A DNA stretch of 17,095 nucleotides, from positions 1 through 17,095 of IMG/VR virus record IMGVR_UViG_2778261641_000010; one strand, given 5' to 3'. The notes under the pieces were generated by a model. It was given only the letters and a program-made list of their open reading frames with translations. It was not told the origin of the DNA and made no database searches. The DNA is from a virus. Lineage: Duplodnaviria; Heunggongvirae; Uroviricota; Caudoviricetes. Within the stretch, counting starts at the first letter, position 1. Each line of letters starts with the position of its first letter. Of this stretch, positions 1-17,095 are shown in pieces. The translations under genes were made by a program, and so were the position numbers.

Positions 1-17
1 TTGCAGGAAACGGTAAA
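1..17. other. Inner end of the partner (left) crossover site / terminal inverted repeat of the invertible segment, truncated by the window edge
   Basis: Bases 1..17 are the reverse complement of 3027..3043 (1 mismatch). Bases 1..9 (ttgcaggaa) would be the last 9 bp of an inverted 26-bp site whose remainder lies left of the window. Confidence 0.5.
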
Positions 18-954: not shown

Positions 955-956
955 TT

Positions 957-1490: not shown

Positions 1491-1493
1491 GAC

Positions 1494-1520
1494 AAGGCCC
1501 GATAGCGGGCCTTAATTTTT
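1494..1520 (+). terminator. Hairpin terminator between the two convergent tfa genes
   Basis: aaggcccg-atag-cgggcctt forms an 8-bp GC-rich stem with a 4-nt loop, followed on the plus strand by aatttttatt and preceded by an A-rich run on the minus strand. It lies exactly between the convergent stops at 1490 and 1519. Confidence 0.55.
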
Positions 1521-2046
1521 ATTCAGGCTTTTGTGGCCATTCAGGATTTGCCGTATCCACACGGCTGACCAGAACACTGTAGCGTTCCCATGACTCCAGT
1601 CGTGCGCGTTCCTCATCCGTCGCCATATTCAGCCTGACGGCGCGTTCCAGTGGCTGAATAATGCTTTCTGCTTCGGAAAGTAACGCGGCCTTTTGTGATT
1701 CTGCCTGTTGTTGCTGCTCATCTGTCGTATAAATCCGTTTAACTACAGTTCCGTCCTTAAACATCCACTTCCCTGAATCATCGGCGCGACGATTGGCTGT
1801 TATATCTGGAATCTCAACGACACTAAAGCCTTCGGGATTAAGCGTTGAGGCATCTCTGGTGATAGCGACAATAATATTATTTTCATCGTAAACAATCTTT
1901 ATTGTGTCTGGCTGAAAGTTCTTCACTTCCTCATACCAGTTTTTTCCGTCTTCGGACCATAACCAGATAACATCAAAATTCTTTGTTAGCTGATATTGCT
2001 CTTTTGTTTTTGGATTACCTGACTTAATGTTCTTTAAATGCTGCAT
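1519..2046 (-). CDS. tfa: Tail fibre assembly protein (Tfa) for the currently expressed fibre tip
   Basis: 175-aa ORF. ATG at 2046 lies 3 nt after the stf stop, with AGGTG upstream. The C-terminal motif ...[27 protein letters not shown] is typical of lambda Tfa / Mu U-family chaperones. Confidence 0.85.
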
Positions 2047-2049
2047 AAC

Positions 2050-5000
2050 TTACACCTGCGCAACGTTATACCATGTGCCATTGATGTATTTTTGTATCGG
2101 CCTGAAGATGGCTTCATCATCGCCATCTACTTCACCAATGATTCTTAATCCGGTAATCGTGTGTCCGGCTTTTTCATAACGACCACCACGCGCCATCAAT
2201 TGAACAACACGTGTGCCAAGTCGGACATCTCTCACATAGCGTGAGTCAAAATTGCCATAATTTCCGGGAATAATTTGCGCACCGCAAAGCCAGTTACCGT
2301 TATTGTCCATGTACGCCTGACCATCGGTGCCATTGGCTGTCCTTGAGTTATTAATCATGTAGATGCCAAATTGCTTGTTCCCCAGTCCACCTATCATGAA
2401 CTTGCGGTCAGCGTGATTCTGGCGAAGCAACGCCTGAGCGCTATCAGTGTTAACTATATTTTTCCCAAAGATAGCGTTGTTATCGCGCATCTGAATCCAC
2501 ATACCATTACTGCTGTTAATAGCAAAACGGTCTGAAAGCGTCTCCCCTGAAACATTAAGGCCACGCCCCATCGAAACAGCGCCAGTAGCGTTATTAATCC
2601 ATAATGGCCTTAATCCGTTATAAGTCCCCATGTTGTCACCGGAGTTTGTCAACATGAAGTATGTATTTGAACCATCATTACGAATAAAGAATCCGTAATT
2701 ACCATAAGCAATACGTAGGCCGTTTGCTGATTTTGATATGACTTCGCCATTTACAATGGCATTGACAAGAACATACAAAGCATCCCATTTAAGATTCATC
2801 AGGTCTTTTGTTGTGGTGCTTTGTTTGCTTCTCCATTTGAAATATTCATTGCCGTTGTCGCCTGTTTCAAACCACATGTATGAATCAGTATCGCTGTCGG
2901 CATCATTTTTAAAACCAATCTTCGCCCAGTCAGTATTTCGAATCCAGGCAAGGATTGAGTCATTTTCAAAAGTAAGCCCGCCGGACAAGGTATCGCCTGT
3001 CTTTTGAACGGCGTTACCAGCCTTGTTTACCGTTTCCTGTAAACCGAGGTATTCGATAACGGCGGCAACGGTCGATTTCGCAAGAATATCCCGCCCGACT
3101 TTTGTCAGGGTTGCCAGGCTGGCGACATCATTCCCCGTAAAATACGGAAACCTGTCTGCCGCAGTAGCAAGCCCGGCCAGCGCCGTCAGGGTGGCATCTT
3201 TCGGTTGCTTACCCGCAAGCGCGTTAGTCATGGTGGTCGCAAAATTCGGGTCGTTTCCCAGCGCCGCCGCCAGCTCGTTCAGCGTGTTCAGTGCGTCAGG
3301 TGACGAATCTACAAGGGCGGCAATCGCAGCCATAACGAAAGCCGTGCTTGCGATCTGAGTATTGTTAGTACCTTTTGGCGCAGTTGGTGTTGTTGGTGTT
3401 CCGGTCAGCGCCGGACTGTTCAGGGGCGCTTTCTTGTTCGTTTCATCCATTACCACCTTTACAGCTTTCGATGTCGCGGCCAGTGTTTCAGACGTGCTGT
3501 TGGTGGCGCTACTGAGCTGGACAAGGCCTTTTCGCGTCGTGCTGGCATCCTGCGCAGTATATTTACCGTTAGCAAGATCATACGCGGCCTTTACTGCTTT
3601 CGGCGTTGCAGCCTGCGTTTCAGACGTGCTGTTGGTTGCACTACTAAGCTGAACCACACCTTTTTTCGTCGTGCTCGCATCCTCAAGCGCCACGGCGGAT
3701 GCAATATCCTCTGCCCGTTTTGCCGCTGTCTCAGCGCGCGTTGCTGCAGATTCCGCCGTACTTTTGCTCTGAGCTGCTGCCGTCGCACTACCAGCAGCCT
3801 CTGTCGCCTTCGTGGATGCCGTCGTGGCGCTGCCCTTCGCTGCTGACGCCTGTCTGGTCGCCTCATCTTTTGAAGCAGACGCCGATGAGGCCGATGACGC
3901 CGCCGAACTGGCGGACGATGCCGCTGCCGTTTTTGAGGATTCTGCACGGGTTTCCGACACTTTCGCGTTCGTTTCGGATGTCTTCGCTGCGGAAGCTGAC
4001 CTCGCTGCTGCCGTGGCCTGTTCAGTGGCTTCGCCAGCCTTCGTTGTGGCTGTTGAAGCGGATGATGCGGCGCTTTCTGCCGACTTTCCGGCAGCGGTGG
4101 CACTGGCTGAGGCCTGCCCGGCACTTGTTGACGCGGCACTGGCAGATGATGCAGCCGCTGTTTTTGAGCCTGCCGCAGCTGAGGCACTCTGTCCCGCTGC
4201 CGTTTCAGAAGACCTGGCGTTCGTCTCGGACGTCTTTGCCGCCTTCGCGGAATTTCCTGCCGCCGTTGCCGAGGAAGCGGCACTACTGGCGCTTGATGAT
4301 GCGTTCGTTTCTGATGATTTCGCTGCCTCTTTTGAGGCCGCCGCATCCCAGGCTGAGGTGGCAGCTTCTGACGCCTTTGTGGTCGCTGCGGATGCAGAAG
4401 TGGCTGCAGATTTTTGTGACGCTGCCGCATTCGTTTCTGACGTTTTCGCCGCACCGGCACTGGTAGCTGCCGCGCTTTTTGAGGACTCTGCAGCGGCAGC
4501 ACTTTTTGATGCTTCAGTAGCCTTTGTTGATGCCGTTCCTGCGCTGGAAGACGCTGACTGAGCCGACGTCGCGGCCTGCCCGGCTGATGTGCTGGCTGCA
4601 CGTGCTGAGCCTGCAGCATCAGTCGCATGGGTTGCCGCCTCACGGGCTGATGTGCTGGCATCACTGGCTGACTTCTTCGCGGCTGCCGTGTTCTGTGCCA
4701 CCACGGACGCGTTACGCGCCACCTCTTCCACCATCAGCTCAAAACGGCGCAGTGCCTCCGGACGGGCGTCATCCTCCGTCATGGCACCGAGAAAATCATT
4801 CAGCGTACCGGGTCGGGAATCTTCATACACTGTGATGGTCCCGGCATGTGACGGCGGGAATCCTTCCACCAACAGAATAACGCTGTACTGACCGTACTCA
4901 ACGTCCATACTGTAACGCCCGGCTTCATCCGGATTTTCAGATGCCAGCGTGTTCACCACCACCGTGGTACTGTTACGTTTTGCTTTCAGCTGGATTGTGC

Positions 5001-5058
5001 AGTTCTGTACCGGTTTTCCTGTTCCGTCTTTCAGTACACCTGAAATTTTTACTGCCAT
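2050..5058 (-). CDS. stf: Side tail fibre protein Stf: lambda-like N-terminal constant part, long Ala/Ser/Thr-rich repetitive shaft, invertible C-terminal tip
   Basis: 1002 aa from the ATG at 5058 (MAVKISGVLKDGTGKPVQNCTIQLKA..., which I recognise as the lambda Stf N-terminus), with a GGAG RBS 5 nt upstream. The GTG two codons further upstream abuts the RBS and is rejected. Phage tail-fibre repeat motifs (DASTTxKGxVQLSSATNSTSE) occur twice. A gix-like site lies in frame at 3034..3059. Confidence 0.85.
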   Translation of the reverse strand: MAVKISGVLKDGTGKPVQNCTIQLKAKRNSTTVVVNTLASENPDEAGRYSMDVEYGQYSVILLVEGFPPSHAGTITVYEDSRPGTLNDFLGAMTEDDARPEALRRFELMVEEVARNASVVAQNTAAAKKSASDASTSAREAATHATDAAGSARAASTSAGQAATSAQSASSSAGTASTKATEASKSAAAAESSKSAAATSAGAAKTSETNAAASQKSAATSASAATTKASEAATSAWDAAASKEAAKSSETNASSSASSAASSATAAGNSAKAAKTSETNARSSETAAGQSASAAAGSKTAAASSASAASTSAGQASASATAAGKSAESAASSASTATTKAGEATEQATAAARSASAAKTSETNAKVSETRAESSKTAAASSASSAASSASSASASKDEATRQASAAKGSATTASTKATEAAGSATAAAQSKSTAESAATRAETAAKRAEDIASAVALEDASTTKKGVVQLSSATNSTSETQAATPKAVKAAYDLANGKYTAQDASTTRKGLVQLSSATNSTSETLAATSKAVKVVMDETNKKAPLNSPALTGTPTTPTAPKGTNNTQIASTAFVMAAIAALVDSSPDALNTLNELAAALGNDPNFATTMTNALAGKQPKDATLTALAGLATAADRFPYFTGNDVASLATLTKVGRDILAKSTVAAVIEYLGLQETVNKAGNAVQKTGDTLSGGLTFENDSILAWIRNTDWAKIGFKNDADSDTDSYMWFETGDNGNEYFKWRSKQSTTTKDLMNLKWDALYVLVNAIVNGEVISKSANGLRIAYGNYGFFIRNDGSNTYFMLTNSGDNMGTYNGLRPLWINNATGAVSMGRGLNVSGETLSDRFAINSSNGMWIQMRDNNAIFGKNIVNTDSAQALLRQNHADRKFMIGGLGNKQFGIYMINNSRTANGTDGQAYMDNNGNWLCGAQIIPGNYGNFDSRYVRDVRLGTRVVQLMARGGRYEKAGHTITGLRIIGEVDGDDEAIFRPIQKYINGTWYNVAQV
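3034..3059. other. gix/cix/pix-family 26-bp recombination (crossover) site for a Gin/Pin-type serine invertase, embedded in stf
   Basis: ttcctgtaaaccgaggtattcgataa: imperfect dyad around a central GA, and from memory a ~23/26 match to Mu gixL (TTCCTGTAAACCGAGGTTTTGGATAA). It sits exactly where the two fibre-tip sequences stop being alike. It encodes ...IEYLGLQE... in the stf frame. Confidence 0.7.
3437..3700 (-). repeat. Tandem direct repeat (2 x 132 bp, imperfect) inside stf encoding duplicated phage tail-fibre repeat motif
   Basis: The block cagacgtgctgttggt(g/t)gc(g/a)ctact(g/a)agctg appears at ~3489..3520 and ~3621..3652, 132 bp (44 codons) apart. Encoded peptides are DASTTKKGVVQLSSATNSTSETQAATPKAV and DASTTRKGLVQLSSATNSTSETLAATSKAV. 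Confidence 0.7.
3700..4730 (-). repeat. Low-complexity Ala/Ser/Thr/Lys-rich periodic region of stf (fibre shaft) with recurring AAKTSETNA-type units
   Basis: The translation shows AAKTSETNAAAS / AAKSSETNASSS / AAKTSETNARSS / AAKTSETNAKVS units. All three frames of both strands are open over much of this stretch because of the GC-rich repetitive composition. Confidence 0.6.
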
Positions 5059-5067
5059 ATTCACTCC

Positions 5068-5096
5068 ACAAAAAAGCCCGCCTGAACCGGCGGGCT
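5068..5096 (-). terminator. Rho-independent terminator downstream of lom, immediately upstream of the stf RBS
   Basis: Minus strand AGCCCGCC-GGTTCA-GGCGGGCT (8-bp GC stem) followed by TTTTTTGTGG, running straight into the stf GGAG RBS and ATG. Confidence 0.7.
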
Positions 5097-5122
5097 GTCA
5101 TAACACTGTGTTACCTGGCTAA

Positions 5123-5722
5123 TCAGAATTTATAACCGACACCCACGATGAAACCGTCAGTGCGCCAGTCGCCACTGCCGGAACCTTCATAAGCAAGGTC
5201 AATGGCCACGGATTCGGTCGGGTTAAACTGCACGCCAGCCCCCCACGCCAGAGACGTGTTGCTGTGGCGACCGCCATCACTCCCGGTCAGCACATCGTGC
5301 GTTTTCCCCTTGTTGTCAGTTACGCGGAGATAATCCCCGGAGAACGTCGAAACACGGCTGTAAGCCACACCCGCCATCGCATAAGCACTGAACCATTCAT
5401 TCACGCGTACAGACGGCCCCGCCATCACGCTGAACCAGCGGTTACGCACTGAATCTTCATGCCAGCGGGTATCGCTGTAACGGGTAATCTGGCGATTCTT
5501 GTCTCCTGCATAGCTGAATGACGTCACCAGCCCCAGCGTGTCCGTAAATTCATAACGGTATTTCACGTTAATGCCCTTCAGGTCATCACTGCCTGGCATA
5601 TCAGTATGGGTCTGAAGATACCCGGCGCTTAGTGTGGACTGATGCTCTGCTGCGCTCGCTGGCGTACCAGCGGCAACCAGCCAGACTACTGCGGACAGAA
5701 TAACAGCACATAATTTACGCAT
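5123..5722 (-). CDS. lom: Lom outer-membrane protein (Ail/Lom/PagC/OmpX-family beta-barrel); lysogenic-conversion moron
   Basis: 199 aa. N-terminal signal peptide [29 protein letters not shown]-terminal ...[10 protein letters not shown] beta-barrel signature, and strong resemblance to lambda Lom as I recall it ([10 protein letters not shown]...[11 protein letters not shown]...[34 protein letters not shown]). RBS AGAGGT 5 nt before the ATG. Confidence 0.9.
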
Positions 5723-5743
5723 AATTACCTCTCGCTTTTCTGC

Positions 5744-5770
5744 AATAAAAAAGGCGCCATTTCTGGCGCC
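5744..5770 (-). terminator. Rho-independent terminator after J, upstream of lom
   Basis: Minus strand GGCGCCA-GAAA-TGGCGCC (7-bp stem, GNRA-type loop) followed by TTTTTTATT, about 20 nt after the J stop. Confidence 0.7.
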
Positions 5771-5789
5771 CGTATCTGGGTTATAAAAT

Positions 5790-8700
5790 TCAGCTAATCG
5801 TGATGCCTGCAGTGGCTTTCTTCATCACAACAACCAGCAAATCGCTGATACTTGCTGTGGGATACCAGTCATTTACCCACCATGCTGATACAGAAAACTC
5901 CAGTGTCATTACACCACTGCCTGCAGGCATATCAATAACACCCGTGTATATCAGCGTATTATCCAGAGCCGTTCGGTTATAAATTTCAGCCCCGTTTTTC
6001 TTCACTATCAGGCGGCATGACGAATAAGTATCGCTATTCTCCCGCTCATGTCTGGCACCGCTGAAAGCCACCGCTGGAATAACAATTTGCCGGTCAAACG
6101 GCTGATCGTCATAAACCCTGACGGTAATGGTCCCTGATGGCCACCGCTCCGGAGCACGGGAGTCCCGGGGGAAAGCTTTGCCCACTGTTTTAACGAGATC
6201 GCCTTCAATCTGGTTCGCGGACAGTTTTCCCAGAACCCGACAGTTCTCGTTAATCGTGACGTTGTTGAGCGTCCCGGAGTTCGCATTCACGTTACCGCTG
6301 ATATCGGCATTTTTCGCCGTCAGCCGCCCGTCCGGTGTCAGGGAAAATGCCGGAGGATTACCGCCGCTGGTAATGGTCGGAGCCGTCAGGCGTTTCAGGA
6401 ACACGTCGTTCATGAATATCTGATCGCCCTGACCAACAAACATTGGTCTTGTGTTGCCATTAGACGGATCAATAAACGCGATACGGTTAGCGGCAACCAG
6501 GAACTGGCTCAGTTTGCCTTCCTCCGTGTCCTCCATGCTGAGGCCAATACCCGCGACATAATGTTTGCCGTCTTTGGTCTGCTCAATTTTGACGCCCCAC
6601 ATGGCATTCCACTTATCGTTGGCGTCCTTCCACTCTTTCGAAAACTGCTCCAGTTTGCTGGCGTTATCTTCCGTCAGCTCAAAGTTTTCCAGTAGCTCCT
6701 TGCCGAGATGCGTTTTATTGATCAACCCTTTATAAAAATTCAGATAACCTTCCGCATCATCGCTCGCCCGACCGACGGCCTCCACAAATGCCGATTTACC
6801 AACGGTATTCACGCTGCGGATATAAAAGTAATAATCATAACCCGGCTTAATATTGCTACTGGCAGCTATCCAGTACAGCGCCGTGCCAAGATAGCGGGCT
6901 GTGGTTTCAACCTGCCTGATATCAGCAATCCGCTTTTCCGAGAACCAGAACTCAAACTGCACCGTCGGGTCATATACAGCCAGTTTCGGGACCGCTGTTA
7001 TCTGAAAATACCCTGGTATCAGTTCAATAGTGACAGGCGCTGCAGGTGCGGCAATCCGGAACGATACCGATGCCGGATCGCCCTGCTGCCCCCACGCATT
7101 TGCCGCCCGGACCGTCAGCGTGTAACGCCCCAGCGCCAGCTGCCTGAAGCGGTATGTGGTTTCCGTCGTCCGGACCGTGCTGACCAGCCGCTCACTGCCG
7201 TCATCCGCTGTTACGGTCAGACGGAGCAGGAAGCTCACGCCCTTCACCACCTTCGGCGTGTCCCAGCGGGCCAGTACCTGATATTCCCCGCTGTCTGCGG
7301 AGACTTCGGCGGTCAGATGCTGCACTGCTGGCGGCGTGACACCATTCACCGTGCCGCTCTGGTCGCCGTCAAAGTGCGCCCCGTTATCCACGATGGCTTC
7401 TTTTTCCGGTACATGCTGCACGGCGGTGATGGCATACGTGCCGTCGTCGTTCTCACGGATACTCACGCAGCGGAACAGGCGCTGGCGCAGCGTCGGCAGC
7501 TTCAGCCCCCATACGCTGTATTCAGCAACGCCGTCAGGAACACGGCTCACTTTCACCTTCACGCCGTCGGCGACGGACTGAACCTCCACGCTGACCGGAT
7601 TGCCACTTCCGTCAACCAGGCTTATCAGCGTGGTACCGGAGGATGGCAGCGTGATTTCACGGTCGAGCGTCAGCGTCCGGGTCTGGCTGTTCACCGCCAG
7701 CACACGACCACCGTTGCTGATACCGGCATAGTCATCATCGCAGATTTCAATGACATCGCCCGGTACATGGCGAAGCCCTTCAGCACCCACGCTGAAGTCC
7801 ACGGTCTGCGTTTCCAGCAGCTCCGTTTTAATCAGCCACAGCCCGGCGCGGTGTGCCTGCCCCCGGCTGGTACAGCCAAAGGCATCCATCTTCGTGACGT
7901 TACGACCGTAACGGGCAATGGCCTGCGTGTCCTCCACAAGCTCTGTTGCCGTCTCCCAGCCATTGTCCGGGTCAATCCAGTTCACCTCAACGGCATTATG
8001 GCGGTCCTTCAGGGCGCTGAAGCTGTAGCGGAACGGCGCGCCATCATCCGGCATCACCACATTACTGCGGTTATAGGTCCACACCTTATCCGACTGTCGG
8101 TCCTGCACGAACGTCAGCGTCTGCCCGTTCCATACCGGCATACAGCGCATCGCCGAGCAGAAATCACTGAGCACATCCCACGCCTTGCGCTGTGTGGTCA
8201 GGTACGCATTACAGGTGATGCGCGGCTCCGTGCCGCCAAAGCCGTCCGGCACTGACTGGTCGCAGTACTGGCCGATGACATACAGCGCCCATTTGTCCAC
8301 ATCCGCCGCACCAAGACGTTTCCCCATGCCGTAGCGCGGGTGGGTCAGCATATCCCACAGACACCAGGCCATGTTGTTGCTGTATGCTGGTTTTAACGTT
8401 CCGTCCCAGATACCGCTGTATTGTCGCGTCTGCGGGTTATAGTTCGACGGCACCTGCAGAATGCGCCCGCGAAGATGATAATTACGGCTCACCTGCTGGC
8501 TGCCGAACTGCTCCGAGTCCACCTGTACGCCGACCAGTGCCGTGTTCGGGTAGCACTGTTTCACATCGATGATCTCGGTGTATGACGACCAGAGCGTTTT
8601 GTTCTGCAGCTGGTCTGTGGTGCTGTCCGGCGTCATCCTGCGCATCCGGATATTGAACGGGCGCGGCGGCAGGTTATCCACCACCACCGAGGCCAGATAC

Positions 8701-9185
8701 TGCGAGGTGGTTTTGCCCTTAATGGTGATGTCTTTTTCCGTCACCCAGCCACCGTTACGCTGTATCTGAACCAGCAGGCGGACTTCCGACGGATTCCTGT
8801 CTCCCTTTGAGGTGGTTTCCACCAGTGCCTGTACACCGAAGGTAAAGCGCAGACGGTCGATGTTTGCCGACGTAATGGTACGGGTGATCGGCGTGTCATA
8901 TTTCACTTCCGTACCCAGCACCGTCTCGGAGCCGGAGGATTCAAACCCCTCCGGCGGTGTCTGCTCCTGCTCACCTGCCCGGAACACCACCGTGACACCG
9001 GCGATGTTGGTATTCCCTTCACTGTCCAGCACCGGCGTACTGTTCAGCAGCACGCTTTTTAATCCATCCACCGGACCTTCTATCGGCCCTTCGCTGATGG
9101 CATCGATCACACTCAGCAACTGCGTGGACTTCAGGTTATCCTTCGCTTCGCGCGGGGTATGCCCCTTACTGCTGCCTTTACCCAT
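5790..9185 (-). CDS. J: Tail tip / host specificity protein J (central tail fibre)
   Basis: 1131 aa. The N-terminus [45 protein letters not shown]... is the lambda J N-terminus as I recall it. The size and the position after I fit, and a GGAG RBS precedes the ATG. Confidence 0.9.
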
Positions 9186-9195
9186 TCCTCACGCT

Positions 9196-9227
9196 CCATA
9201 AACGACAAAACCGCCCGGAGGCGGTTT
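9196..9227 (-). terminator. Terminator-like hairpin between I and J
   Basis: Minus strand AAACCGCC-TCCG-GGCGGTTT followed by TGTCGTTTAT (interrupted U-tract), in the 60-nt I-J gap. Confidence 0.45.
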
Positions 9228-9245
9228 CACATAAAACATTTTGCA

Positions 9246-9893
9246 TCAGCGACCAATCACCACAACCTGACCACCGTCCCCTTCGTCTGCCGTGCTGATC
9301 TCCTGAGAAACCACCCGCGACCCCACGCGCATTTCACCGTACAGAACGGGCAGAACATTGCCCTGGGCAACCATGTTATCCAGTGAGGAGAAATAGGTGT
9401 TCTGTTTGCCGTTATCTGTACTTGCTGCCGTGGGCGTCCTGGCTTTCGGTGCCAGCATCTGCGCCACTCCGCCCAGGATCATACTGGCCCCTGCCGCATA
9501 CATGCCCGATAAAGCCGCGGCACCCAGCCAGCCTGCGGGGTTCCACCACGCCACCGCAAACAGCGCCGCACCCAGCACCGCCTGAAAAACACCGCCACTT
9601 TTGGCTCCCGCCAGACGCGGCACGATGTGGATCACTGCACCATTTGCCAGCGGCTCATTAAGACGGGCAGATAATTCGGTTTCACCTGCATCACGCCCGG
9701 CAATGCGCACCTGATACCAGCCGTCATTCAGTTTCTGACGAAACGCCGGGAGCTGTGTGGACAGCGCCCGGATGGCTTCAGCCCCCGTTTTCACACGAAG
9801 GTCGATGCGGCGGCCAAATCGTTGCAAATCCCCGTAAAGGCAGATGCGTGCCATGCCCGGTGACGCCAGAGGGAGTGTGTGCGTCGCTGCCAT
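9246..9893 (-). CDS. I: Tail assembly protein I (tail tip assembly, ubiquitin-like N-terminal region family)
   Basis: 215-aa ORF whose C-terminus is ...NTYFSSLDNMVAQGNVLPVLYGEMRVGSRVVSQEISTADEGDGGQVVVIGR. It lies between K and J as in lambda. Start uncertain: ATG at 9893 (GAGAGAGG ~11 nt upstream) or ATG at 9854; both overlap the 3' end of K. Confidence 0.8.
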   Translation of the reverse strand: MAATHTLPLASPGMARICLYGDLQRFGRRIDLRVKTGAEAIRALSTQLPAFRQKLNDGWYQVRIAGRDAGETELSARLNEPLANGAVIHIVPRLAGAKSGGVFQAVLGAALFAVAWWNPAGWLGAAALSGMYAAGASMILGGVAQMLAPKARTPTAASTDNGKQNTYFSSLDNMVAQGNVLPVLYGEMRVGSRVVSQEISTADEGDGGQVVVIGR

Positions 9894-10534
9894 TTGTCGG
9901 TATACCTCTCTCGTTTGCTCAGTTGTTCAGGAATATGGTGCAACAGCTCGCCGTCGCCGCAGTAAATGGCGGCATGATTCGGCACCGATGAACCAAAACA
10001 GCACAGCAGTACATCGCCCGGCTGCGCCGCTGACAACGGCACCTGATACAGCCCCGTTGCCTCCAGATTATCCAGATAGAGATTCTGGCCGTTACGCCAC
10101 CAGTCATCCTCACGATGAAAATCCGGCATCTCAATCCCCGCCAGATGGTAAGCGTCCCGGAACAGCGTGTAACAGTCCGTCACCCCGTGCTCAAAGCGTC
10201 GCCCGGTGAGATGCGGCACACAGCGGAACTTATGAATCGCCCCCCGGCAGACCAGCCACCAAGGCAAATCGCTCTGCACCTGCAGCCGCCTGTCAGCCTC
10301 ACTCAGCCAGGGCAGACCACCGGGGTGGCTGTGGACCAGCGCCACAATCTCACCCTGCATCTCTGCCCGCAGCCAGTCCTCCGGCGACATCCGGAAATAC
10401 GCCTCCGGCTCACCGGAGATATTCACGCAGGGAAAATATCTTTCCCCTTCCGGCGTTCTCACCACGAAGCCGCACGACTCCGCTGGCGCACATCGCCGGG
10501 CGTGCGCCAGAATCGCTGATTCTGTCTGTGTCAT
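9791..10534 (-). CDS. K: Tail assembly protein K with JAMM/MPN metalloprotease and NlpC/P60 domains
   Basis: 247 aa from the ATG at 10534 (MTQTESAILAHARR...), 4 nt after the L stop. Intact JAMM motif HSHPGGLPWLSEAD (H-x-H-x7-S-x2-D), then a Cys/His-containing NlpC/P60-like region (GVTDCYTLF...NHAAIY...HH). The 14 codons upstream in the ORF track lie inside L and are rejected. Confidence 0.85.
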   Translation of the reverse strand: MTQTESAILAHARRCAPAESCGFVVRTPEGERYFPCVNISGEPEAYFRMSPEDWLRAEMQGEIVALVHSHPGGLPWLSEADRRLQVQSDLPWWLVCRGAIHKFRCVPHLTGRRFEHGVTDCYTLFRDAYHLAGIEMPDFHREDDWWRNGQNLYLDNLEATGLYQVPLSAAQPGDVLLCCFGSSVPNHAAIYCGDGELLHHIPEQLSKRERYTDKWQRRTHSLWRHRAWHASAFTGICNDLAAASTFV

Positions 10535-10538
10535 GGGA

Positions 10539-11237
10539 TTACTGCGAAAGTTTGTTAATGGAAAGGAAGCCGCCAAAGTTGCCGACGTTATTGCGAAACT
10601 TACAGCCGCTCAGGCATTTGCTGCATTTATCCTTCGTGATATCGGACGTCGGCTGGTCATATTCATCCGCGACAGCCGGACCATGATAACCGCACTCATC
10701 ACCGCGATAGGTCCAGGTGCAGGTGTTGGCCAGCATGATGCGCCCCGGAAAAACAGCACCATCCGTTTCCGTCGGTGTGGAGAGCACAAAGGAGGCACTG
10801 ACCGCACTCAGTTCGCTGCACTGCTCAATGCGCCAGCGGCTGATCACCTCCTGCTCAGGATCGGCATCGCTGTTTCCGGTGACGAAGTTCACCGCATCCA
10901 GAAAACGGGCGTAAACCTTACGCCTGACCACCGTTCCGCCGACCAGACTCTGCAAATCTTCCACCATCCCGGTGACCATGCCGTGCAGATTAGAGACTTT
11001 CAGAGTTGGCCTGGCGCTGGCTCCTTTACCGTTCATCTCAAATCCGCTCCCCTGAATGGGATACGGCTGATACTGTCGCCCCTGCCAGGTGACCGGCTCA
11101 CCTTTTTCGTTCTGCTCATTACAGAAAAAATAACGCTCTCCGCCGACTTCTGTCAGATCGACTTCCCAGAGCACGACCAGCGCGGATTGCTCCGCTTTTG
11201 TACACTCATTCAGTGTTTCCTGCTGTATATCCTGCAT
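10539..11237 (-). CDS. L: Minor tail protein L
   Basis: 232 aa, lambda L-like length and position; contains a Cys cluster (C-x2-C ... CSKCLSGC). Its start overlaps the M stop. Confidence 0.88.
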   Translation of the reverse strand: MQDIQQETLNECTKAEQSALVVLWEVDLTEVGGERYFFCNEQNEKGEPVTWQGRQYQPYPIQGSGFEMNGKGASARPTLKVSNLHGMVTGMVEDLQSLVGGTVVRRKVYARFLDAVNFVTGNSDADPEQEVISRWRIEQCSELSAVSASFVLSTPTETDGAVFPGRIMLANTCTWTYRGDECGYHGPAVADEYDQPTSDITKDKCSKCLSGCKFRNNVGNFGGFLSINKLSQ

Positions 11238-11578
11238 CAGTGAGTGACCTCTTCAAAGGTACAGTTAAAATCGGTATACATGGCATTATCCGAAATGCTC
11301 CACTCCCTGCAGACAACCCGGACAGTCCTGTTGTGTTTTGGCGGACGCCACAAAAAAGCACGAATCCCGGCATGACGGGATAAAAAACTGTCCAGCGCGG
11401 CACGGGAATATTCATCTGTGACACGAAATACCGGTTTAAACGTTTTCAGATCCGCATTCAGACCACCAGCCCGTCGCTGTTCATATCCGTCACCAAACTT
11501 TACCGTAATAACTGATGGCTTTCGTGTCGTCTCCATCCCCTCACGGGGGATCCAGTTAAAAACTTCAGGCTCAGGCAC
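11237..11578 (-). CDS. M: Minor tail protein M
   Basis: Conserved FGDGYEQR and WRPP motifs as in lambda M (FGDGYSQR...). Preferred start is the GTG at 11578, which has AGGAGGA 7 nt upstream and gives ~113 aa; the alternative is the ATG at 11593. It overlaps the tape-measure stop (11571-11573) by a few nt. Confidence 0.78.
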   Translation of the reverse strand: MPEPEVFNWIPREGMETTRKPSVITVKFGDGYEQRRAGGLNADLKTFKPVFRVTDEYSRAALDSFLSRHAGIRAFLWRPPKHNRTVRVVCREWSISDNAMYTDFNCTFEEVTH

Positions 11579-14500
11579 TGTACAATCCTCCATCCCGACG
11601 CGATGACTGCATAATTGACACAACCCTGCTGTCGATCAGATCCACCAGCCCCCTGGCTGACTGCGTATCTATCTCGCCATTGCTCCCTTTATTCTGAATA
11701 CTGATGTGATACACGGGAGAATAAACAAATCCACCGCCACCATTCACATTGCCAATGGCTCTGACTCCAAGAGAGCCGTCCGCTGCCCGAGTCAGTGGCA
11801 TGATAGCTTCAGGCCCGGCCTCGCCCATCAGCCCGGCACCTTTCGCAAAAGCAAAATACGTCGGGGTATCCACAATGGTGTTACTGTAAGCACTCAAATT
11901 TGCCGATGTATAAACACCACCTTTTGCGTTTGCCACTGCACCGGAAAGCCAGTCGCCGACTGTACCAAGCCATCCTCCGGCACCGGACATGCTTTTGGAA
12001 AGTGACTTCAGCCCGTTAACGATGGCAGCGTTCATCAGAATTTTTGAAACTTCCTGGAGAATTGAACTCCCCCAGTTTCTCCAGTCCACAACATTTCCGG
12101 CCAGTGCATCGGAAATATTTGATACCAGCCCGTCCATAGTGGAAATGACAGCATCTGCCGCCTGCGAAGCATAATCAGTGGCACTGTCTGCCCAGTTCGT
12201 CAGCCCCTCCTGGAGTCCGGCATTCCAGTTACTGCGTAAAGCATCAGCCTTTGCATAATAATCCTGCTGATCGCTGAGACGCTCTTCCAGATATTTTTCA
12301 TTCAGCGATTTTTCCTGTTTCCACAGGGCTTCTTCAATTTCTCCGGCCTGATACTGTCTCAGCAGCTCGTTATTTTTCTGCTCAAACGCCTGCCGGATAC
12401 TCCACATTTCCTGGAGTCGTTCACGCATCCGTGAGCCTTCACCATATCCCAGCAACTGCGCGTCGTCAGATGCCCGGGCACTGGCATTACTGTCCGCCAG
12501 ACTGCTTTCATACGCGGCAAGCTGCTCACGAATCTTTTTCTGGTCGATGAGTGCCGCATTCTGTAAAAGCGTTTTTTTCTGCGCTTCTGACAGGGTTGAT
12601 AATTCGCCCTGACTGACCTGATATTTCATCTTAGCCAGTTCAGTATTCTGCCCTGCCAGTGCTATTTGTTCTTTTTGCTGTTTAATTAGCCGTTTATAAA
12701 TATCTTCTGTTTTTTCCGCTTCGGTCTTTTTATGCGCTTTGGGTTTATTTGCCTGGTTATTTCGCCAGGCATCCAGTGAGTTATTGATATAATTCTGTCT
12801 GGCTGTCTGATACGCCTCTCCCACAAAGCCGAGATCATCCGCAGCATAACCCAGTCGGGCACGCTCACGGGCTTCCCCCTTCAGGCGGGACAGAGCCAGT
12901 TCGCGCTCGCTGTTATTCAGTGCGGTCTGCTGTTTATCATCCAGGGTTGCCTGTGGTAGCCGTAATGGTGCATTCACCAGCCCCTGTCGCTGCTGAAGTA
13001 ATTCATTACCAAGCCCGAGAAGACGATTAAACTCGGTATGCTGCCCATTCATGATCAACAGGGACTGATACGCTTTGTTTTGTTCCGCCGCCTGTTGACG
13101 GATCAACGCCACCCGTCGCTCCTCCAGCCCGGCAAGCACATCCTGAATAGATTGCGCTTTGCCCTGCATTTGAGTGAGGCGAGACTGTTCAACTGCCAGT
13201 TGATTTGTTGCTTCTGCAAGCCCTTCTGTGACAGTTTTCACCGACGTCATATGGTTAATCATAAAACCGTTATCGGTTGTCCAGCCCGGGTTTGCCAGCA
13301 CATACTGATAGCCAGCAATTTTTTCCTGTAAGGATTTAATCTTACTTTTCTGCTCGTCAATTAACCTGTTTTGCTCATCAAGTGCCTGCCGCGTCTTTTC
13401 CTCATTATCTGACGCTTCAGGAAGCGACATTGCCGACGTTTTCTGGCGAATTTCGTCGATTGTTGCGGCATACTGGCGTGCAGATTCTCTGGCCTGCTCC
13501 TGATTCTGATACATCGTGTACCAGGCCGTCGCCCCCAGCATGACGAGTCCCGGCACACCACCAACCAACCCCAGCGCACCACTTAACAGACGACTCCCCA
13601 CTGACGTGACAGTATTCAGCGTTGTCTGTGCCGCTGTTCTGGCCGCAATATTACGGGTAAGTGACGCCTGGGCAGCTGTCAGCTTCGCTTCTGCTGCGGC
13701 CTGCCTTTCGGTACCGCGAGCAGCAACAACCGCCTGTTGCGCACGATAAACCGCCGCACGCGCCCTGGCGGTTGCTATCTGTGTCCCCCGAAGTTGCGCT
13801 TCAGCAAGAGCCACTTCGTTTCTGGCTGCAGTAATTAATCCGGCAGTTGCAGATCCAGCAGACGACGCCATATTGCCAAAATATCGGGCTACCCCGACGG
13901 CAACCAGTGCGCCAGCTGCAGCAGCCACGGTATCAATATTGTCTGCAACACCATTCAACACCCCGGTGAGTGTCTTTGTCACTCCGCTTGCCTCGTTCGC
14001 ACCACCAACCCAGGCCATAAAGGCGTTTTCAACTTTGGTTGCAGAGGATGAAACAGTATCAGGCATTGCTGCATATTCATCACGCAACGCCCCAAGCTGA
14101 CTAATCAGTGCAGGAACAACCTTATCGGCGGTCAGTTTTCCGTTATCCGCCATGGCTTTCAGATCCTTACGGGCAACACCCATTCCCGCAGCCAGCGCAC
14201 GAATAACACGATCGCCGTTCTCATTCACAGAGTTAAATTCTTCACCGCGCAGCACTCCCTGCGCCAGTGCCTGACTGAACTGCGTGATCACCGAACTGGC
14301 TTCTGCTGTACTGGCACCGGATAATTTCAGGCCCGTGGAGATCGCCTCGGTGACTTTCAGTACCTCCTCAGAACTGTAGCCATACTCCCGCATGGAAGCT
14401 GCAGAGCGGGCAAAAAGGCTGGCGTTATCAGAAAACGCCGTTCCCGTTCTCTGGCTGATTGCCATTAATTCACGTTGTGATACCTGAAAATCATCACTGG

Positions 14501-14816
14501 ACTGTGAAGCCTGCTTCAGGCGGGCATTTACTGAATTCCACTCATCGGCGAGAGAAATAAGATGACCGGTAGCAAAAGCTCCGGCAAATGCCCCCGCCAT
14601 ATTCAGTGCCGAAGATTTAGCTGTATTTATCTGATCCGTCACTTCTGCCAGTGCACGCCGCATTTCACGGGATGCAGCAGCGGACTGCCGGCCTCCGTTC
14701 TGCATGGTACGGTAGTAATCCTGCCCCATACGCGAAGCCCGGGAGATCTCTGACTGGAATGACCGGGAATTTGCCGAGATTTTAATAATCAGTTCACGTA
14801 ATGTCGCCACACTCAT
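11571..14816 (-). CDS. Tail tape measure protein
   Basis: 1081 aa, largely alpha-helical/coiled-coil-like composition (Ala/Gln/Leu/Glu-rich), with Gly-rich hydrophobic stretches. It lies between G/GT and M. GGAGA precedes the start (ATG at 14816 or the in-frame GTG two codons later). Confidence 0.9.
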   Translation of the reverse strand: MSVATLRELIIKISANSRSFQSEISRASRMGQDYYRTMQNGGRQSAAASREMRRALAEVTDQINTAKSSALNMAGAFAGAFATGHLISLADEWNSVNARLKQASQSSDDFQVSQRELMAISQRTGTAFSDNASLFARSAASMREYGYSSEEVLKVTEAISTGLKLSGASTAEASSVITQFSQALAQGVLRGEEFNSVNENGDRVIRALAAGMGVARKDLKAMADNGKLTADKVVPALISQLGALRDEYAAMPDTVSSSATKVENAFMAWVGGANEASGVTKTLTGVLNGVADNIDTVAAAAGALVAVGVARYFGNMASSAGSATAGLITAARNEVALAEAQLRGTQIATARARAAVYRAQQAVVAARGTERQAAAEAKLTAAQASLTRNIAARTAAQTTLNTVTSVGSRLLSGALGLVGGVPGLVMLGATAWYTMYQNQEQARESARQYAATIDEIRQKTSAMSLPEASDNEEKTRQALDEQNRLIDEQKSKIKSLQEKIAGYQYVLANPGWTTDNGFMINHMTSVKTVTEGLAEATNQLAVEQSRLTQMQGKAQSIQDVLAGLEERRVALIRQQAAEQNKAYQSLLIMNGQHTEFNRLLGLGNELLQQRQGLVNAPLRLPQATLDDKQQTALNNSERELALSRLKGEARERARLGYAADDLGFVGEAYQTARQNYINNSLDAWRNNQANKPKAHKKTEAEKTEDIYKRLIKQQKEQIALAGQNTELAKMKYQVSQGELSTLSEAQKKTLLQNAALIDQKKIREQLAAYESSLADSNASARASDDAQLLGYGEGSRMRERLQEMWSIRQAFEQKNNELLRQYQAGEIEEALWKQEKSLNEKYLEERLSDQQDYYAKADALRSNWNAGLQEGLTNWADSATDYASQAADAVISTMDGLVSNISDALAGNVVDWRNWGSSILQEVSKILMNAAIVNGLKSLSKSMSGAGGWLGTVGDWLSGAVANAKGGVYTSANLSAYSNTIVDTPTYFAFAKGAGLMGEAGPEAIMPLTRAADGSLGVRAIGNVNGGGGFVYSPVYHISIQNKGSNGEIDTQSARGLVDLIDSRVVSIMQSSRRDGGLYSA

Positions 14817-14826
14817 TCTCCGGACG

Positions 14827-14847
14827 AAAAAAACCGCCGAAGCGGTT
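14827..14847 (-). terminator. Short terminator/attenuator-like hairpin between GT and the tape measure gene
   Basis: Minus strand AACCGC-TTCG-GCGGTT (5-6 bp stem, UUCG-type loop) followed by TTTTTTT, then the GGAGA RBS of the tape measure gene. Confidence 0.4.
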
Positions 14848-14855
14848 ATGTTGAC

Positions 14856-15544
14856 TCACTGAGACACTATTAAAAGCGCGTTTTCCAGTCCGGCAAATGG
14901 ATCTGAGACGCCTTCTGTCTGCTCTTGTTCCCACTGAAGAAGCGCATCATTCAGTGGGACTTTGACACCCTGCGCACCGTAAACCGCAGAAACTATCTGG
15001 GCAGCCCGGATATCAGCCCGCTCGTCACCCAGCGGGCTGAACCTGTCAAATTCTGCCCACATCATGATTTCTGATGCGGACATTTCCCGGCGTAACTCTG
15101 ACAATGTGCGCCCCATCCTGAGCGCCAGCATCATCAGAAAACGCATCCCCGGAAGCTCTACTTTTTTTTAACCTCGCCGGCATCACTGATCAGTTCCAGA
15201 GACTGCCGAAGAAGCCGCGCATGCACCGGGCCATACACGGCAATCACCTGTTCACGATCATCCTCTGAAAATACAGGTTGCAGTCCGGTATCACACAGAA
15301 CATCAATGAACAGTTCAACATCTGCCTCCAGATTTCGGCGGGCGCGCTCCGCAACGGATAACGGTGTCTCATCATCTTTTGCTTTAACGATCTCCTGCCA
15401 GCGCAACCAGGCTTCTGCAGAAGGTTCCCGTAATACAACCGTTGCCCCTTCCCATTCAGGCACATCAACAGTTTTATGGCGAAACCCCGACATCGTTGCC
15501 AGTGCCAGATTGCGGATATTTTTAGTCATCACATCTATCCTCAT
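14856..15544 (-). CDS. Tail assembly chaperone GT fusion produced by programmed -1 ribosomal frameshift
   Basis: The ORF at 14856..15146 has codon phase exactly -1 relative to G. The G frame ends ...GTT AAA AAA AAG TAG, so a slip on A_AAA_AAG (15161..15167) continues K-V-E-L-P-G-M-R-F-L... to the stop at 14856. The downstream ORF has no plausible independent RBS. Confidence 0.65.
15158..15544 (-). CDS. Tail assembly chaperone G (0-frame product)
   Basis: 128 aa; the ATG at 15544 overlaps the major-tail stop (TAATG). An alternative start is the ATG at 15529, with GAGGA 8 nt upstream. Position immediately before the tape measure gene and the acidic C-terminal half fit a G-type chaperone. Confidence 0.75.
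   Translation of the reverse strand: MRIDVMTKNIRNLALATMSGFRHKTVDVPEWEGATVVLREPSAEAWLRWQEIVKAKDDETPLSVAERARRNLEADVELFIDVLCDTGLQPVFSEDDREQVIAVYGPVHARLLRQSLELISDAGEVKKK
15161..15167 (-). promoter_or_regulatory. -1 programmed ribosomal frameshift slippery heptamer A_AAA_AAG, directly followed by the 0-frame stop TAG
   Basis: Run of 8 A then G on the minus strand (plus strand c-tttttttt-a at 15161..15170); A_AAA_AAG is a classic slippery sequence (e.g. dnaX). Confidence 0.65.
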
Positions 15545-16248
15545 TAACTGACGGTAACAGTGCAGGAAGTGGAGGTCACCTTGTTAACAGGGCTTGCTGA
15601 ATCAGAAATCTCGCAGGTATACGCACCGGCATCACCTGATGCTGCTGATGCCTTACTGAATGTTGCCGCCGTCTGTCCGGAAACAGGAGAACTACCTTTC
15701 TTCCAGACATAAGAATAAGGCGGCACACCACCGGCAGCCTCAACCACCATTTCGAGTTTCGCTCCGGCAGAAACCTGCAGCGTGCTGTTTAAATCGACCT
15801 TCACTTTCAGCGGCTCTGTCGTCAGCACAGGTTTACCTTTCAGGCGCAGGGAAAACGTTGCAGCCACAACACCATTAGTTCCTGCAGACCAGGTATGCTG
15901 ACGCACCTCTGCCATAAAGGTAAATCCGTTGCCTGACGGAAAAATAACTTTAAAGCCATACGTGGTGTCATTGTCATAGGCACTGCGCAACGCGTTCTGG
16001 GCAGCATTGAGGTAAAAGTTGCCTGACATGGAAATCTCTGACGCGGCACCAAGGCCGTTAATATTTTCCTGCTCAACAGAACACAGCGTGGTGACATCAA
16101 TATCCTGCTTTTGTCCTGCGGTAAACTGCACCTCTTTGATTGTACAGCTCAGGCCAAGATAGCTGGCAGAATCCAGGGTTTCTGCTGTTACCGGTGCAGA
16201 CGAAATCATAATTTTCGTCAGTTGCGAACGCTCAAAATTAGAGGACAT
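15544..16248 (-). CDS. Major tail protein with C-terminal Ig-like (Big_2-type) domain
   Basis: 234 aa from the ATG at 16248 (MSSNFERS...), with AGGAGA 5 nt upstream. The ORF-track 5' extension runs through a terminator hairpin and is rejected. The C-terminal ~80 aa (...VSAGAKLEMVVEAAGGVPPYSYVWKKGSSPVSGQTAATFSKASAASGDAGAYTCEISDSASPVNKVTSTSCTVTVS) resemble an Ig-like decoration domain. It sits just upstream of G/GT. Confidence 0.8.
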   Translation of the reverse strand: MSSNFERSQLTKIMISSAPVTAETLDSASYLGLSCTIKEVQFTAGQKQDIDVTTLCSVEQENINGLGAASEISMSGNFYLNAAQNALRSAYDNDTTYGFKVIFPSGNGFTFMAEVRQHTWSAGTNGVVAATFSLRLKGKPVLTTEPLKVKVDLNSTLQVSAGAKLEMVVEAAGGVPPYSYVWKKGSSPVSGQTAATFSKASAASGDAGAYTCEISDSASPVNKVTSTSCTVTVS

Positions 16249-16260
16249 ACTCGTCTCCTG

Positions 16261-16287
16261 AAAATAAAAAACCCGCCAGCGGCGGGT
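16261..16287 (-). terminator. Rho-independent terminator-like hairpin in the leader of the major tail gene
   Basis: Minus strand ACCCGCC-GCT-GGCGGGT (7-bp GC stem) followed by TTTTTATTTT, then AGGAGA and the ATG of the major tail gene. Confidence 0.6.
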
Positions 16288-16307
16288 GGGTAAAATCATT
16301 AACGACC

Positions 16308-16652
16308 TCAGGCTATTACCTGAAATTCAAGCGTGGATCTGCTCAGACGGGAATCAGGATCATAACCCTGAGTTTTAGAAATAACGGAAGGTGCAAGTTG
16401 CCTTACCGCATCAAGCGCCTGCTCACGGATATCATCTGCGTCATCAGGTACTGTTGCCCAGACATCGATCTGCACGGTAATTCTGGATTCAGCCTGACCA
16501 TCAAGCACATCAGACGCAGTGTCAGACACCACAGAAAATACCAGCCATGGCGGAGATACCGCAGGCTTTCCCTCCGTCAGCGGGACCACATAAGGATAAA
16601 CCTGTCCTCCGGCCAGTTGAGACAGCAGGGAATACAGTGTGGTCTCTCTCAT
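16308..16652 (-). CDS. Tail completion / tail terminator-type protein (DUF3168-like; lambda U position)
   Basis: 114 aa; its ATG overlaps the stop of the upstream gene (ATGA). The call rests on size and position immediately before the major tail gene. Confidence 0.65.
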   Translation of the reverse strand: MRETTLYSLLSQLAGGQVYPYVVPLTEGKPAVSPPWLVFSVVSDTASDVLDGQAESRITVQIDVWATVPDDADDIREQALDAVRQLAPSVISKTQGYDPDSRLSRSTLEFQVIA

Positions 16653-17095
16653 TTACTTAAGACCTCATCAATAGCCTGATTCATTCGCTGTATGGCAATC
16701 TGTGCTGCCAGTTCCTCTGTCGTATCGAAAGCTGGGCGAATGAACGGATGCGCGGGCATGTTTATCGTTCCCAGCTCCACAAAGCGCCAGTAAAACGCAT
16801 TTCGGGGATCACTGGCTTTCATGCTGTTATCACTGTTTCCGGTTCGCAGGTTCCGTCCACGAATGTGGACACCCGAGATAATTTCCCCCCGACGCTTTGA
16901 ACGCTGAGTGAGAACAACCACATTTTTCTTCAGTTTCCCGGTTCGCTCCGGCGCACGTTCAACAACTGCATCCCGCATAACTTCAGCACCGGCACGGGTG
17001 GCATCGCGCAGTACCTTATTGTTTTCTGCCCTGCTGAGCGTCTCCAGATCCCGTGCAATATCCGCCAGACCTGAAAAATCAAGACTGAAATCCAT
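16649..17095 (-). CDS. HK97 gp10-family neck/tail-completion protein (lambda Z position); possibly 5'-truncated by the window edge
   Basis: 148 codons in the window, starting with an ATG at the very last bases (17093..17095), so completeness cannot be judged. Motifs ...FYWRFVELGT...PAHPFIRPAFD... resemble the HK97 gp10 family as I recall it. Confidence 0.6.
   Translation of the reverse strand: MDFSLDFSGLADIARDLETLSRAENNKVLRDATRAGAEVMRDAVVERAPERTGKLKKNVVVLTQRSKRRGEIISGVHIRGRNLRTGNSDNSMKASDPRNAFYWRFVELGTINMPAHPFIRPAFDTTEELAAQIAIQRMNQAIDEVLSK

Follow-up and report, generated by a model that had tools for sequence, protein, structure and literature searches.

Why should a single co-directional tail operon carry a terminator-like hairpin in every one of its intergenic gaps? 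This question is raised by a stretch of 17,095 nucleotides from a tailed virus (Caudoviricetes; IMG/VR record IMGVR_UViG_2778261641_000010), which is called the window here.

The tail operon and its five hairpins

The window carries a lambda/HK97-like (hybrid) prophage tail operon. Such sequences are widespread in E. coli: 5200 of the 5426 complete genomes match the window, and the best of these complete genomes do so with 95-96% identity and ~80% coverage. The operon forms one block on the minus strand (1519..17095). Its genes were assigned from the open reading frames and from the annotation of PhiR49_2, a complete phage that is 95% identical to the window. They are Z' (16649-17095), U (16308-16652), the major tail gene V (15544-16248), G (15158-15544), T (14856-15146, reached via a -1 frameshift), the tape measure gene H (11571-14816), M (~11237-11569), L (10539-11237), K (~9791-10537), I (9246-~9794), J (5790-9185), lom (5123-5722), stf (2050-5064), and tfa (1519-2046), all on the minus strand; the gene assignments of the initial annotation are correct. 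Only five non-overlapping gaps are found in the operon: U/V, T/H, I/J, J/lom, and lom/stf. Together they make up 1.8% of the operon (283 nt in 15.6 kb).

The initial annotation had also placed five hairpins on the minus-strand transcript, mostly in these gaps. All five are present at those places. Each faces the sense direction (5/5), and each occupies a gap of its own (5/5). It had allowed that the stems might be too weak for termination, which is not borne out by the folding energies (-8.5 to -18.2 kcal/mol, with stems of 6-9 bp and loops of 3-6 nt); T/H has the weakest stem and I/J the weakest U-tract. In four of the five hairpins a tract of T6-T7 directly follows the stem on its 3' side, while that of I/J is weaker. 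For scoring, the d-score of d'Aubenton-Carafa was re-implemented and sanity-checked on lambda.

The U/V hairpin (16261..16287, minus strand) has a 7-bp GC stem and a 3-nt loop (16287-16271, ACCCGCC-GCT-GGCGGGT), with T6AT4 behind it (d = 44, -12.6 kcal/mol). The Shine-Dalgarno motif CAGGAG comes immediately after the hairpin, ahead of the ATG of the major tail gene at 16248. The T/H hairpin (14825..14847, minus strand) is located just upstream of the Shine-Dalgarno sequence and start of the tape measure gene, and consists of 6 bp closed by a UUCG tetraloop (14847-14832, AACCGC-TTCG-GCGGTT; T7, d = 15, -8.5 kcal/mol). In the I/J hairpin (9196..9228, minus strand; 9228-9207, AAACCGCC-TCCG-GGCGGTTT; -15.3 kcal/mol), a GC core, CCGCC/GGCGG, is extended by A-U pairs around the loop TCCG. 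Its U-run is short, UUUU(G)UC(G)UUU, with only 4 U when the A-U pairs are left uncounted, and it still reaches d = 19. The J/lom hairpin (5746..5771, minus strand; 5771-5752, GGGCGCC-AGAAAT-GGCGCCT; T6, d = 42, -15.7 kcal/mol) is found ~30 nt ahead of the start codon of lom. It has 7 bp, or 8 pairs and the loop GAAA in the built-in terminator scan. The lom/stf hairpin (5069..5096, minus strand; 5096-5075, AGCCCGCC-GGTTCA-GGCGGGCT; T6, d = 43, -18.2 kcal/mol) has 8 bp and a 6-nt loop, and lies downstream of the accessory gene lom.

When both strands of the window (17 kb) are scored, exactly six positions are positive: the five gap hairpins and one site on the plus strand. In 40 dinucleotide shuffles, an average of 0.62 sites score above d = 0, and 0.15 sites score above d = 14. 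A chance origin is rejected by this comparison and by the confinement of all five hairpins to the 1.8% intergenic fraction. The sixth site is a hairpin between the convergent genes tfa (minus) and tfa' (plus), at 1494..1522, scored at 1496-1511 with d = 6 on the plus strand. Its T-run exists on the plus strand only, so that it is predicted to be a canonical terminator for tfa' alone. The built-in scan lists four of the five gap hairpins; I/J is absent because of its short U-run. A permissive hairpin scan returned hundreds of meaningless matches and was dropped. In the lambda control the d-score identified five sites, which we take, by their positions and not by annotated features of the record, to be t_oop, tR2, tI, a terminator of the tL region, and t_imm; no site was scored in the tR' region. 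Known structured RNA families were rejected too, since no Rfam family reaches its gathering threshold in any part of the window.

Conservation of the hairpins among relatives

The hairpin at U/V has counterparts in HK97 and in Phytobacter, Symbiopectobacterium, Superficieibacter, and an uncultured bacterium. Their loops are not alike, and one variant swaps the stem CCCGCC/GGCGGG to CCCGGC/GCCGGG. Species-representative genomes were searched for more distant loci of the V gene, and just four usable loci were obtained. The comparison across genera consists of folds and scores of each sequence, since the loops differ in length and the stems are misaligned by MAFFT. Among the 80 closest IMG/VR relatives of the window, the U/V stem is almost invariant and the T/H stem does not vary; these two stems are therefore uninformative on covariation in this set.

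The J/lom hairpin gives a clearer answer. In the 80 relatives 100% of the paired cells are kept, with two double-change pairs (G-C to A-U and C-G to U-A) and one G.U intermediate. The covariation score is reached by none of 500 shuffles, and slid controls give none. Pairing of J/lom in the sense RNA is under selection. The I/J hairpin points in the same direction by another route. Only 1 of its 16 stem positions varies among relatives, compared with 21 of 49 outside the stem (Fisher p = 0.007), and all four loop positions vary. This indicates that the I/J stem is kept by selection while its loop and flanks vary. For lom/stf, no double changes were found among the relatives and the shuffle control is uninformative; its one-sided changes mostly produce G.U in the sense RNA.

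By their anatomy and conservation, the five elements are genuine and evolutionarily maintained terminator hairpins, at which termination is predicted.

Known phages and the slots for accessory genes

The record of HK97 (NC_002167), which reportedly derives from Juhala et al. 2000 (J Mol Biol 299:27), shows a "putative terminator" at three of the same junctions: U/V (6692-6719), before the tape measure gene (8398-8422), and before J (15107-15129). The layout is that of the window, with hairpin, U-tract, Shine-Dalgarno sequence, and start in this order. The U/V stem of HK97 (CCCGCC/GGCGGG) is homologous to that of the window, whereas its T/H and pre-J stems have other sequences. Additional sites of HK97 lie behind the portal gene, behind V, and before I, and HK97 has no lom gene. 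In lambda, the I/J hairpin (15466-15479) is identical to that of the window except for one loop base, and the lom/stf hairpin (19613-19632) is a homologue that shares the outer stem and U6. Lambda also has a hairpin at the J/lom junction, but its sequence is unrelated and its score is lower (d = 9). There are no gaps or hairpins at U/V and T/H in lambda, which has another type of V-G-T-H module. The lambda record NC_001416 gives no features for the I/J, J/lom, and lom/stf hairpins.

Another example is phage L, a P22-like phage. As is proposed here, its predicted Rho-independent terminators are located within a late operon that has a single promoter and is antiterminated. Phage L differs from the window in having a podovirus virion module with terminators at other junctions, and there is no sequence relationship between them. 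In the 2020 report on phage L, intra-operon terminators are described as "not unique to L" and common, their role is said to be not known, and the same hypotheses as ours are offered (PMC8022706). Terminators inside Q-controlled late operons of lambdoid phages are thus already known and are an ordinary feature. Series of them entered the annotation of HK97 25 years ago and can also be seen in lambda, and their presence in the window carries little weight as a discovery.

What the known phages offer is a connection to accessory genes. The space between the tail chaperone gene and the tape measure gene is taken up by gp15 in HK97, and "moron" genes of this kind carry their own terminator (PMC3594210). 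The T/H gap of the window corresponds to the slot of HK97 gene 15. An accessory gene is absent here from the window and present in 7 of the 80 close relatives, in loci of two more genera (L245 and L247), and in HK97. The seven relatives carry an ORF of 113 aa with membrane and zinc-ribbon features, and homology to the window resumes exactly at the base of the hairpin. L245 and L247 carry other cargo, and in each case a hairpin comes after it, directly ahead of the tape measure start. The stems at this junction in HK97, L245, and L247 are different from that of the window. A terminator lies 3' of every T/H cargo examined. Judged from the sequence, the T/H hairpin of the window is the putative terminator of an empty "moron slot". 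For the ORF inserted at T/H in locus L021, the promoter tool reported no promoter-like site upstream. A -35-like hexamer, TTGACT, can be seen by eye upstream of this ORF, with a weak -10 only.

The pre-tape-measure and pre-J hairpins of HK97 follow the accessory genes gp15 and gp22/23, respectively, while both slots are empty in the window, so that its T/H and I/J hairpins stand without an accessory gene. In a moron cassette, such as HK97 gene 15 or lambda lom, a gene has entered a phage late operon together with a promoter and a terminator. The lom gene of the window resembles these cassettes in being followed by a strong terminator of its own. It differs from them in that no promoter was recognised for it, the built-in scan finding no sigma-70-like site upstream on the minus strand. 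The U/V gap contains no extra gene in any of the 80 close relatives, HK97, and the four other genera. Therefore, the slot explanation does not cover the strongest hairpin.

Transcription through the hairpins and their possible role

If these hairpins stop RNA polymerase, how are the genes downstream expressed? The initial annotation had argued for antitermination of the Q type. Q is indeed present in PhiR49_2, HK97, and lambda, but neither a Q gene nor a late promoter or Q-binding element lies in the window itself. In PhiR49_2, Q is recognised as Phage_antitermQ (PF06530, E = 1e-52). A terminator is found 72 nt after its stop codon and leads into one block of late genes of the same orientation, in which all five hairpins occur; nine co-oriented terminators are counted from Q through the late block. 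HK97 and lambda, with which the window shares hairpins, likewise encode Q. Q makes RNA polymerase resistant to terminators (PMC6606751; bioRxiv 10.1101/651190), and the late genes of lambda are expressed as one Q-dependent mRNA of 27 kb (PMC10695390). It is reasonable, on this indirect evidence, to suppose that the five hairpins are read through under the control of Q.

In the sense transcript of the late or tail operon, we consider, the five elements are probably Rho-independent terminators that serve as insulating punctuation and are read through by Q-loaded polymerase. Unmodified polymerase, arising from read-in, from spurious starts, or from transcription of morons such as lom in the repressed prophage, would be halted at the hairpins, and this would silence the flanking structural genes, which are toxic or useless. 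During lytic growth, polymerase loaded with Q at the late promoter would ignore the hairpins and produce the whole block as one long mRNA. The hairpins at module boundaries and cargo slots (T/H, I/J, and J/lom/stf) would then be insulators and not mainly rheostats of late-gene dosage. Insulation is favoured because three of the gaps are known cargo slots of morons. Besides the lack of Q in the window and of an extra gene at U/V, two observations are counted against this explanation. The J/lom terminator lies just before the lom ATG and no sigma-70-like site was found nearby, which leaves the expression of lom past this terminator in a prophage unaccounted for; and the T/H stem is weak (-8.5 kcal/mol) and the U-tract of I/J is short.

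A related idea, tentative and rather doubtful as it stands, is that the hairpins go beyond passive termination and are conserved docking punctuation for the exchange of accessory genes. A terminator set directly in front of the next essential gene and its Shine-Dalgarno sequence would define a safe slot, upstream of which any kind of cargo could be inserted or swapped, and the hairpin itself might be a recombination joint. This is hinted at by the breakpoints located exactly at the hairpin base and by the four unrelated cargoes in the slot before the tape measure gene. If it is true, the empty T/H and I/J gaps are vacant slots and not scars.

The hairpins could instead be partial terminators (attenuators) acting in lytic growth, each of which lowers the amount of downstream mRNA and so determines how much of the abundant tail proteins is made relative to the minor ones. 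Such control of stoichiometry had been suggested in the initial annotation and is one of two possibilities named for phage L (PMC8022706). Of the five, only T/H is well placed for it, with V-G-T upstream and the low-copy tape measure gene downstream, and a hairpin directly follows the major capsid gene in HK97, lambda, and PhiR49_2. The overall fit is poor, however, because the strongest hairpin, U/V, is downstream of the low-copy gene U and upstream of the gene for the most abundant tail protein. No hairpin is found at V/G in the window, where the two genes overlap. At least five partial terminators in series would moreover starve the essential gene J, and Q-loaded polymerase is described as termination-deficient. 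Attenuation is thus unlikely.

It is still less probable that the role of the hairpins is in RNA stability or processing, where they would shield segments of the long late mRNA at their 3' ends, or at the 5' ends left by cleavage, and give each block its own half-life. Stable GC hairpins at the ends of gene blocks, with pairing selected in the sense RNA, would suit this role, and the "terminator" annotated after gp12 in HK97 has no U-tract and looks more like a stabiliser. In the window, however, 5/5 hairpins have a U-tract right after the stem, a hallmark of intrinsic termination that a 3' stabiliser does not need, and the length of this tract is kept (T6-T9) across relatives. Very improbable is the view that the hairpins are functionless scars, left by lost accessory cassettes or by recombination and tolerated only through Q: the T/H and I/J gaps are empty in the window and filled in relatives or HK97, and several homology breakpoints lie at or beside hairpins, but the compensatory substitutions in J/lom, the frozen I/J stem with its variable loop, the persistence of U/V across five genera despite sequence turnover, and the non-homologous hairpins at the J/lom junction of lambda and the window are patterns of continuing selection and not of decay.

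This family of loci is a convenient test bed for the question of whether such terminators insulate the silent prophage, control dosage, or stabilise RNA. It is found in most E. coli genomes, its covariation can be measured, and its T/H slot exists both empty and filled in nature. Note that public annotations in which the major tail gene starts at an upstream ATG bury the U/V terminator in coding sequence.

Hairpins in the gaps of the tail operon

The siphovirus tail operon in the window has 14 co-directional genes on the minus strand. They encode a Z-like tail completion protein (cut by the window end), tail terminator U, major tail protein V, chaperones G and T, tape measure H, M, L, K, I, central fibre J, outer-membrane accessory protein Lom, side tail fibre Stf, and Stf assembly protein Tfa. 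The V-G-T-H part is HK97-like, and the I-J-lom-stf part is lambda-like. The nearest phages are E. coli temperate phages with ~95% identity (e.g., vB_EcoS-640R1 and PhiR49_2), and 5200 of 5426 complete E. coli genomes have matches to the window.

Exactly five gaps in the operon are longer than a few bases, and each has one hairpin, named here by its flanking genes: U-V (16261-16287), T-H (14825-14847), I-J (9196-9228), J-lom (5746-5771), and lom-stf (5069-5096). These gaps total 283 nt, or 1.8% of the operon length. Every hairpin is in sense orientation, with the next gene's ribosome-binding site directly after it. The initial annotation, which placed five terminator-like hairpins on the minus strand, mostly in non-overlapping gaps, is confirmed.

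The d'Aubenton-Carafa terminator score (d) was re-implemented. In lambda it found five sites, which by position rather than by the record's annotation we take to be t_oop, tR2, tI, a tL-region terminator, and t_imm, and none in the tR' region. The score is therefore specific rather than exhaustive. On both strands of the window there are six positives: the five gap hairpins plus a hairpin on the plus strand, at the operon's convergent end. Dinucleotide shuffles give a mean of 0.62 such sites (0.15 at d>14), and the observation is statistically solid. Four of the five are also among the top hits of a built-in terminator scan. Scores and folding energies on the minus strand are d=44 and -12.6 kcal/mol for U-V, d=15 and -8.5 kcal/mol for T-H, d=19 and -15.3 kcal/mol for I-J, d=42 and -15.7 kcal/mol for J-lom, and d=43 and -18.2 kcal/mol for lom-stf. 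With these energies (-8.5 to -18.2 kcal/mol), the objection raised in advance, that the stems are too weak for termination, does not hold. The T-H stem has only six pairs; its UUCG loop and T7-T9 run assist it. I-J has only four uninterrupted U.

Such hairpins are real but already known. In the late operon of the HK97 RefSeq record, 'putative terminator' features are found between the tail terminator and the major tail subunit, after the gp15 moron right before the tape measure, right before J, and at other sites, sharing junctions with three of the five window hairpins. Lambda has hairpins at I-J, J-lom, and lom-stf. All five are present in the complete 41-kb PhiR49_2, with one more after the major capsid gene and three further ones on the stretch from the late antiterminator gene Q to the lysis genes; all share one orientation. 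New here are the evidence for covariation and the reading of T-H and I-J as vacant cargo slots.

An ATG at 16299 opens the longest ORF of the major tail protein, and the publicly annotated start in PhiR49_2 (L082 25948-26703, 251 aa) is equivalent to it. With this start, the U-V hairpin falls within the coding sequence, in the stretch 16249-16299. The alternative ATG, at 16248, follows a CAGGAG ribosome-binding site and agrees with the HK97 gp12 start; the protein is therefore probably annotated 17 codons too long in the relatives. The end of the G gene (15158-15175, minus strand) has a run of eight A (GTT AAA AAA AAG TAG), likely the slippery site for the conserved -1 frameshift producing a G-T fusion chaperone.

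Selection on pairing

As far as the data reach, the hairpin structure is under selection. Among 80 lom-carrying IMG/VR loci, the J-lom stem exists as GGCGCC/GGCGCC, GGCGTC/GACGCC, and GGCACC/GGTGCC, with a G.U intermediate also present. Paired cells amount to 100% and two pairs have two-sided changes; the covariation score was reached by no shuffle and in none of the slid controls. Among 37 distinct I-J junction sequences, only 1 of 16 stem positions is variable, changing to a G.U pair, whereas 21 of 49 positions outside the stem vary, including all four loop positions (Fisher p = 0.007). At lom-stf, double changes were looked for and none was seen; one-sided changes are mostly C-to-U or equivalent, keeping a G.U pair in the sense RNA only.

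The U-V hairpin is nearly invariant among close relatives. The same outer stem with differing loops is found at this junction in HK97 and in prophages of Phytobacter, Symbiopectobacterium, Superficieibacter, and an uncultured bacterium, with the inner pair swapped in one case, while major tail protein identity at these loci is only 66-77%. At J-lom, lambda has a hairpin at the same place unrelated in sequence to that of the window. Before the tape measure, HK97 and the prophage loci L245 and L247 each have a different hairpin.

Proposed roles: insulation, antitermination, and stoichiometry

The common trait of the hairpin positions is adjacency to cargo slots, and insulation is therefore the favoured function. 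The hairpins would halt polymerase without Q, keeping accessory or stray prophage transcription out of the structural genes, and would be transparent during lytic growth. For predicted terminators inside the late operon of phage L, which its authors call 'not unique to L', partial termination or halting of spurious transcription started without antitermination has been proposed (PMC8022706). HK97 gene 15, the original 'moron' and a superinfection-exclusion gene, is located after the tail chaperone gene and before that of the tape measure; morons are described as having their own promoter and terminator (PMC3594210). The same slot, between T and the tape-measure terminator, is filled in 7 of 80 close relatives (L021, 3895-4330; L025, L037, L040, L054, L055, and L072) by a 113-aa ORF whose product has a zinc-ribbon (PF13248) and predicted membrane helices. 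In all seven, similarity to the window restarts precisely at the hairpin's 5' base. Upstream of the L021 ORF, a TTGACT -35-like hexamer with only a weak -10 is seen by eye; a promoter scan there found no site. The T-H slot has a 296-residue TPR protein in Superficieibacter and ~1.6 kb including a reverse ORF in Symbiopectobacterium, each followed by a hairpin right before the tape-measure start.

In HK97, morons gp22/23 precede the pre-J terminator. lom sits between the last two hairpins, and in the J-lom gap (5723-5789) the terminator ends only ~30 nt before the lom ATG. A search for sigma-70-like promoters on the minus strand found none between this hairpin and lom or a short way upstream; expression of lom from lambda prophages has been reported (PMC7067206). 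The U-V gap has no extra gene in any locus examined, and the slot reading does not extend to this hairpin. Similarity to many database phages (L084-L163) begins or ends at gene-module edges, two of which adjoin hairpins (9246 at I-J, and directly past the lom-stf U-tract at 5069 in three loci) and one of which does not (~11241, the M/L boundary). Mosaic joints thus often, but not always, coincide with hairpins.

Q-type antitermination, which the initial annotation deduced from the hairpins, is the textbook interpretation and is indirectly supported. In lambda, a single Q-dependent mRNA of ~27 kb carries the late genes (PMC10695390), and Q makes RNA polymerase resistant to terminators (PMC6606751; bioRxiv 10.1101/651190). 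PhiR49_2 has a Q gene (Phage_antitermQ, PF06530, E = 1e-52), and a terminator follows 72 nt after its stop codon; HK97 and lambda also encode Q. As regulatory genes are absent from the window, the Q inference rests on these relatives. From Q to the tail fibre genes at least eight or nine terminators stand in series, and read-through without antitermination would be negligible unless all were very leaky. The suggestion that the hairpins set stoichiometry is weak: it fits T-H only, the best-scoring site (U-V) precedes the gene of the most abundant tail protein and so is wrongly placed, and V and G overlap in the window with no hairpin between them.

The tail-fibre end

Positions 1-3042 resemble invertible tail-fibre segments such as Mu G, P1 C, and e14 P. 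The C-terminal part of stf and tfa on the minus strand face, on the plus strand, an alternative tfa' (957-1490) and an alternative fibre C-terminus (1-954), which has no start and runs off the window. The inverted repeat arms (1-41 and 3002-3042) contain the motif TTTCCTGTAA / TTGCAGGAAAC, which we take to resemble invertase crossover sites. The invertase gene would then be located immediately beyond the window. Where tfa and tfa' converge, the hairpin between them (1494-1522) has a T-run on the plus strand only, and the minus-strand operon in its present orientation therefore ends without a canonical terminator. Inversion would swap the fibre gene sets on the two sides of this hairpin. The J-stf gap of HK97 (L083, 19031-19239; 207 nt) has neither lom nor a simple terminator and contains a long inverted repeat, GGGAAGGTGCGAATAAGT ... 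ACTTATTCGCACCTTCC.
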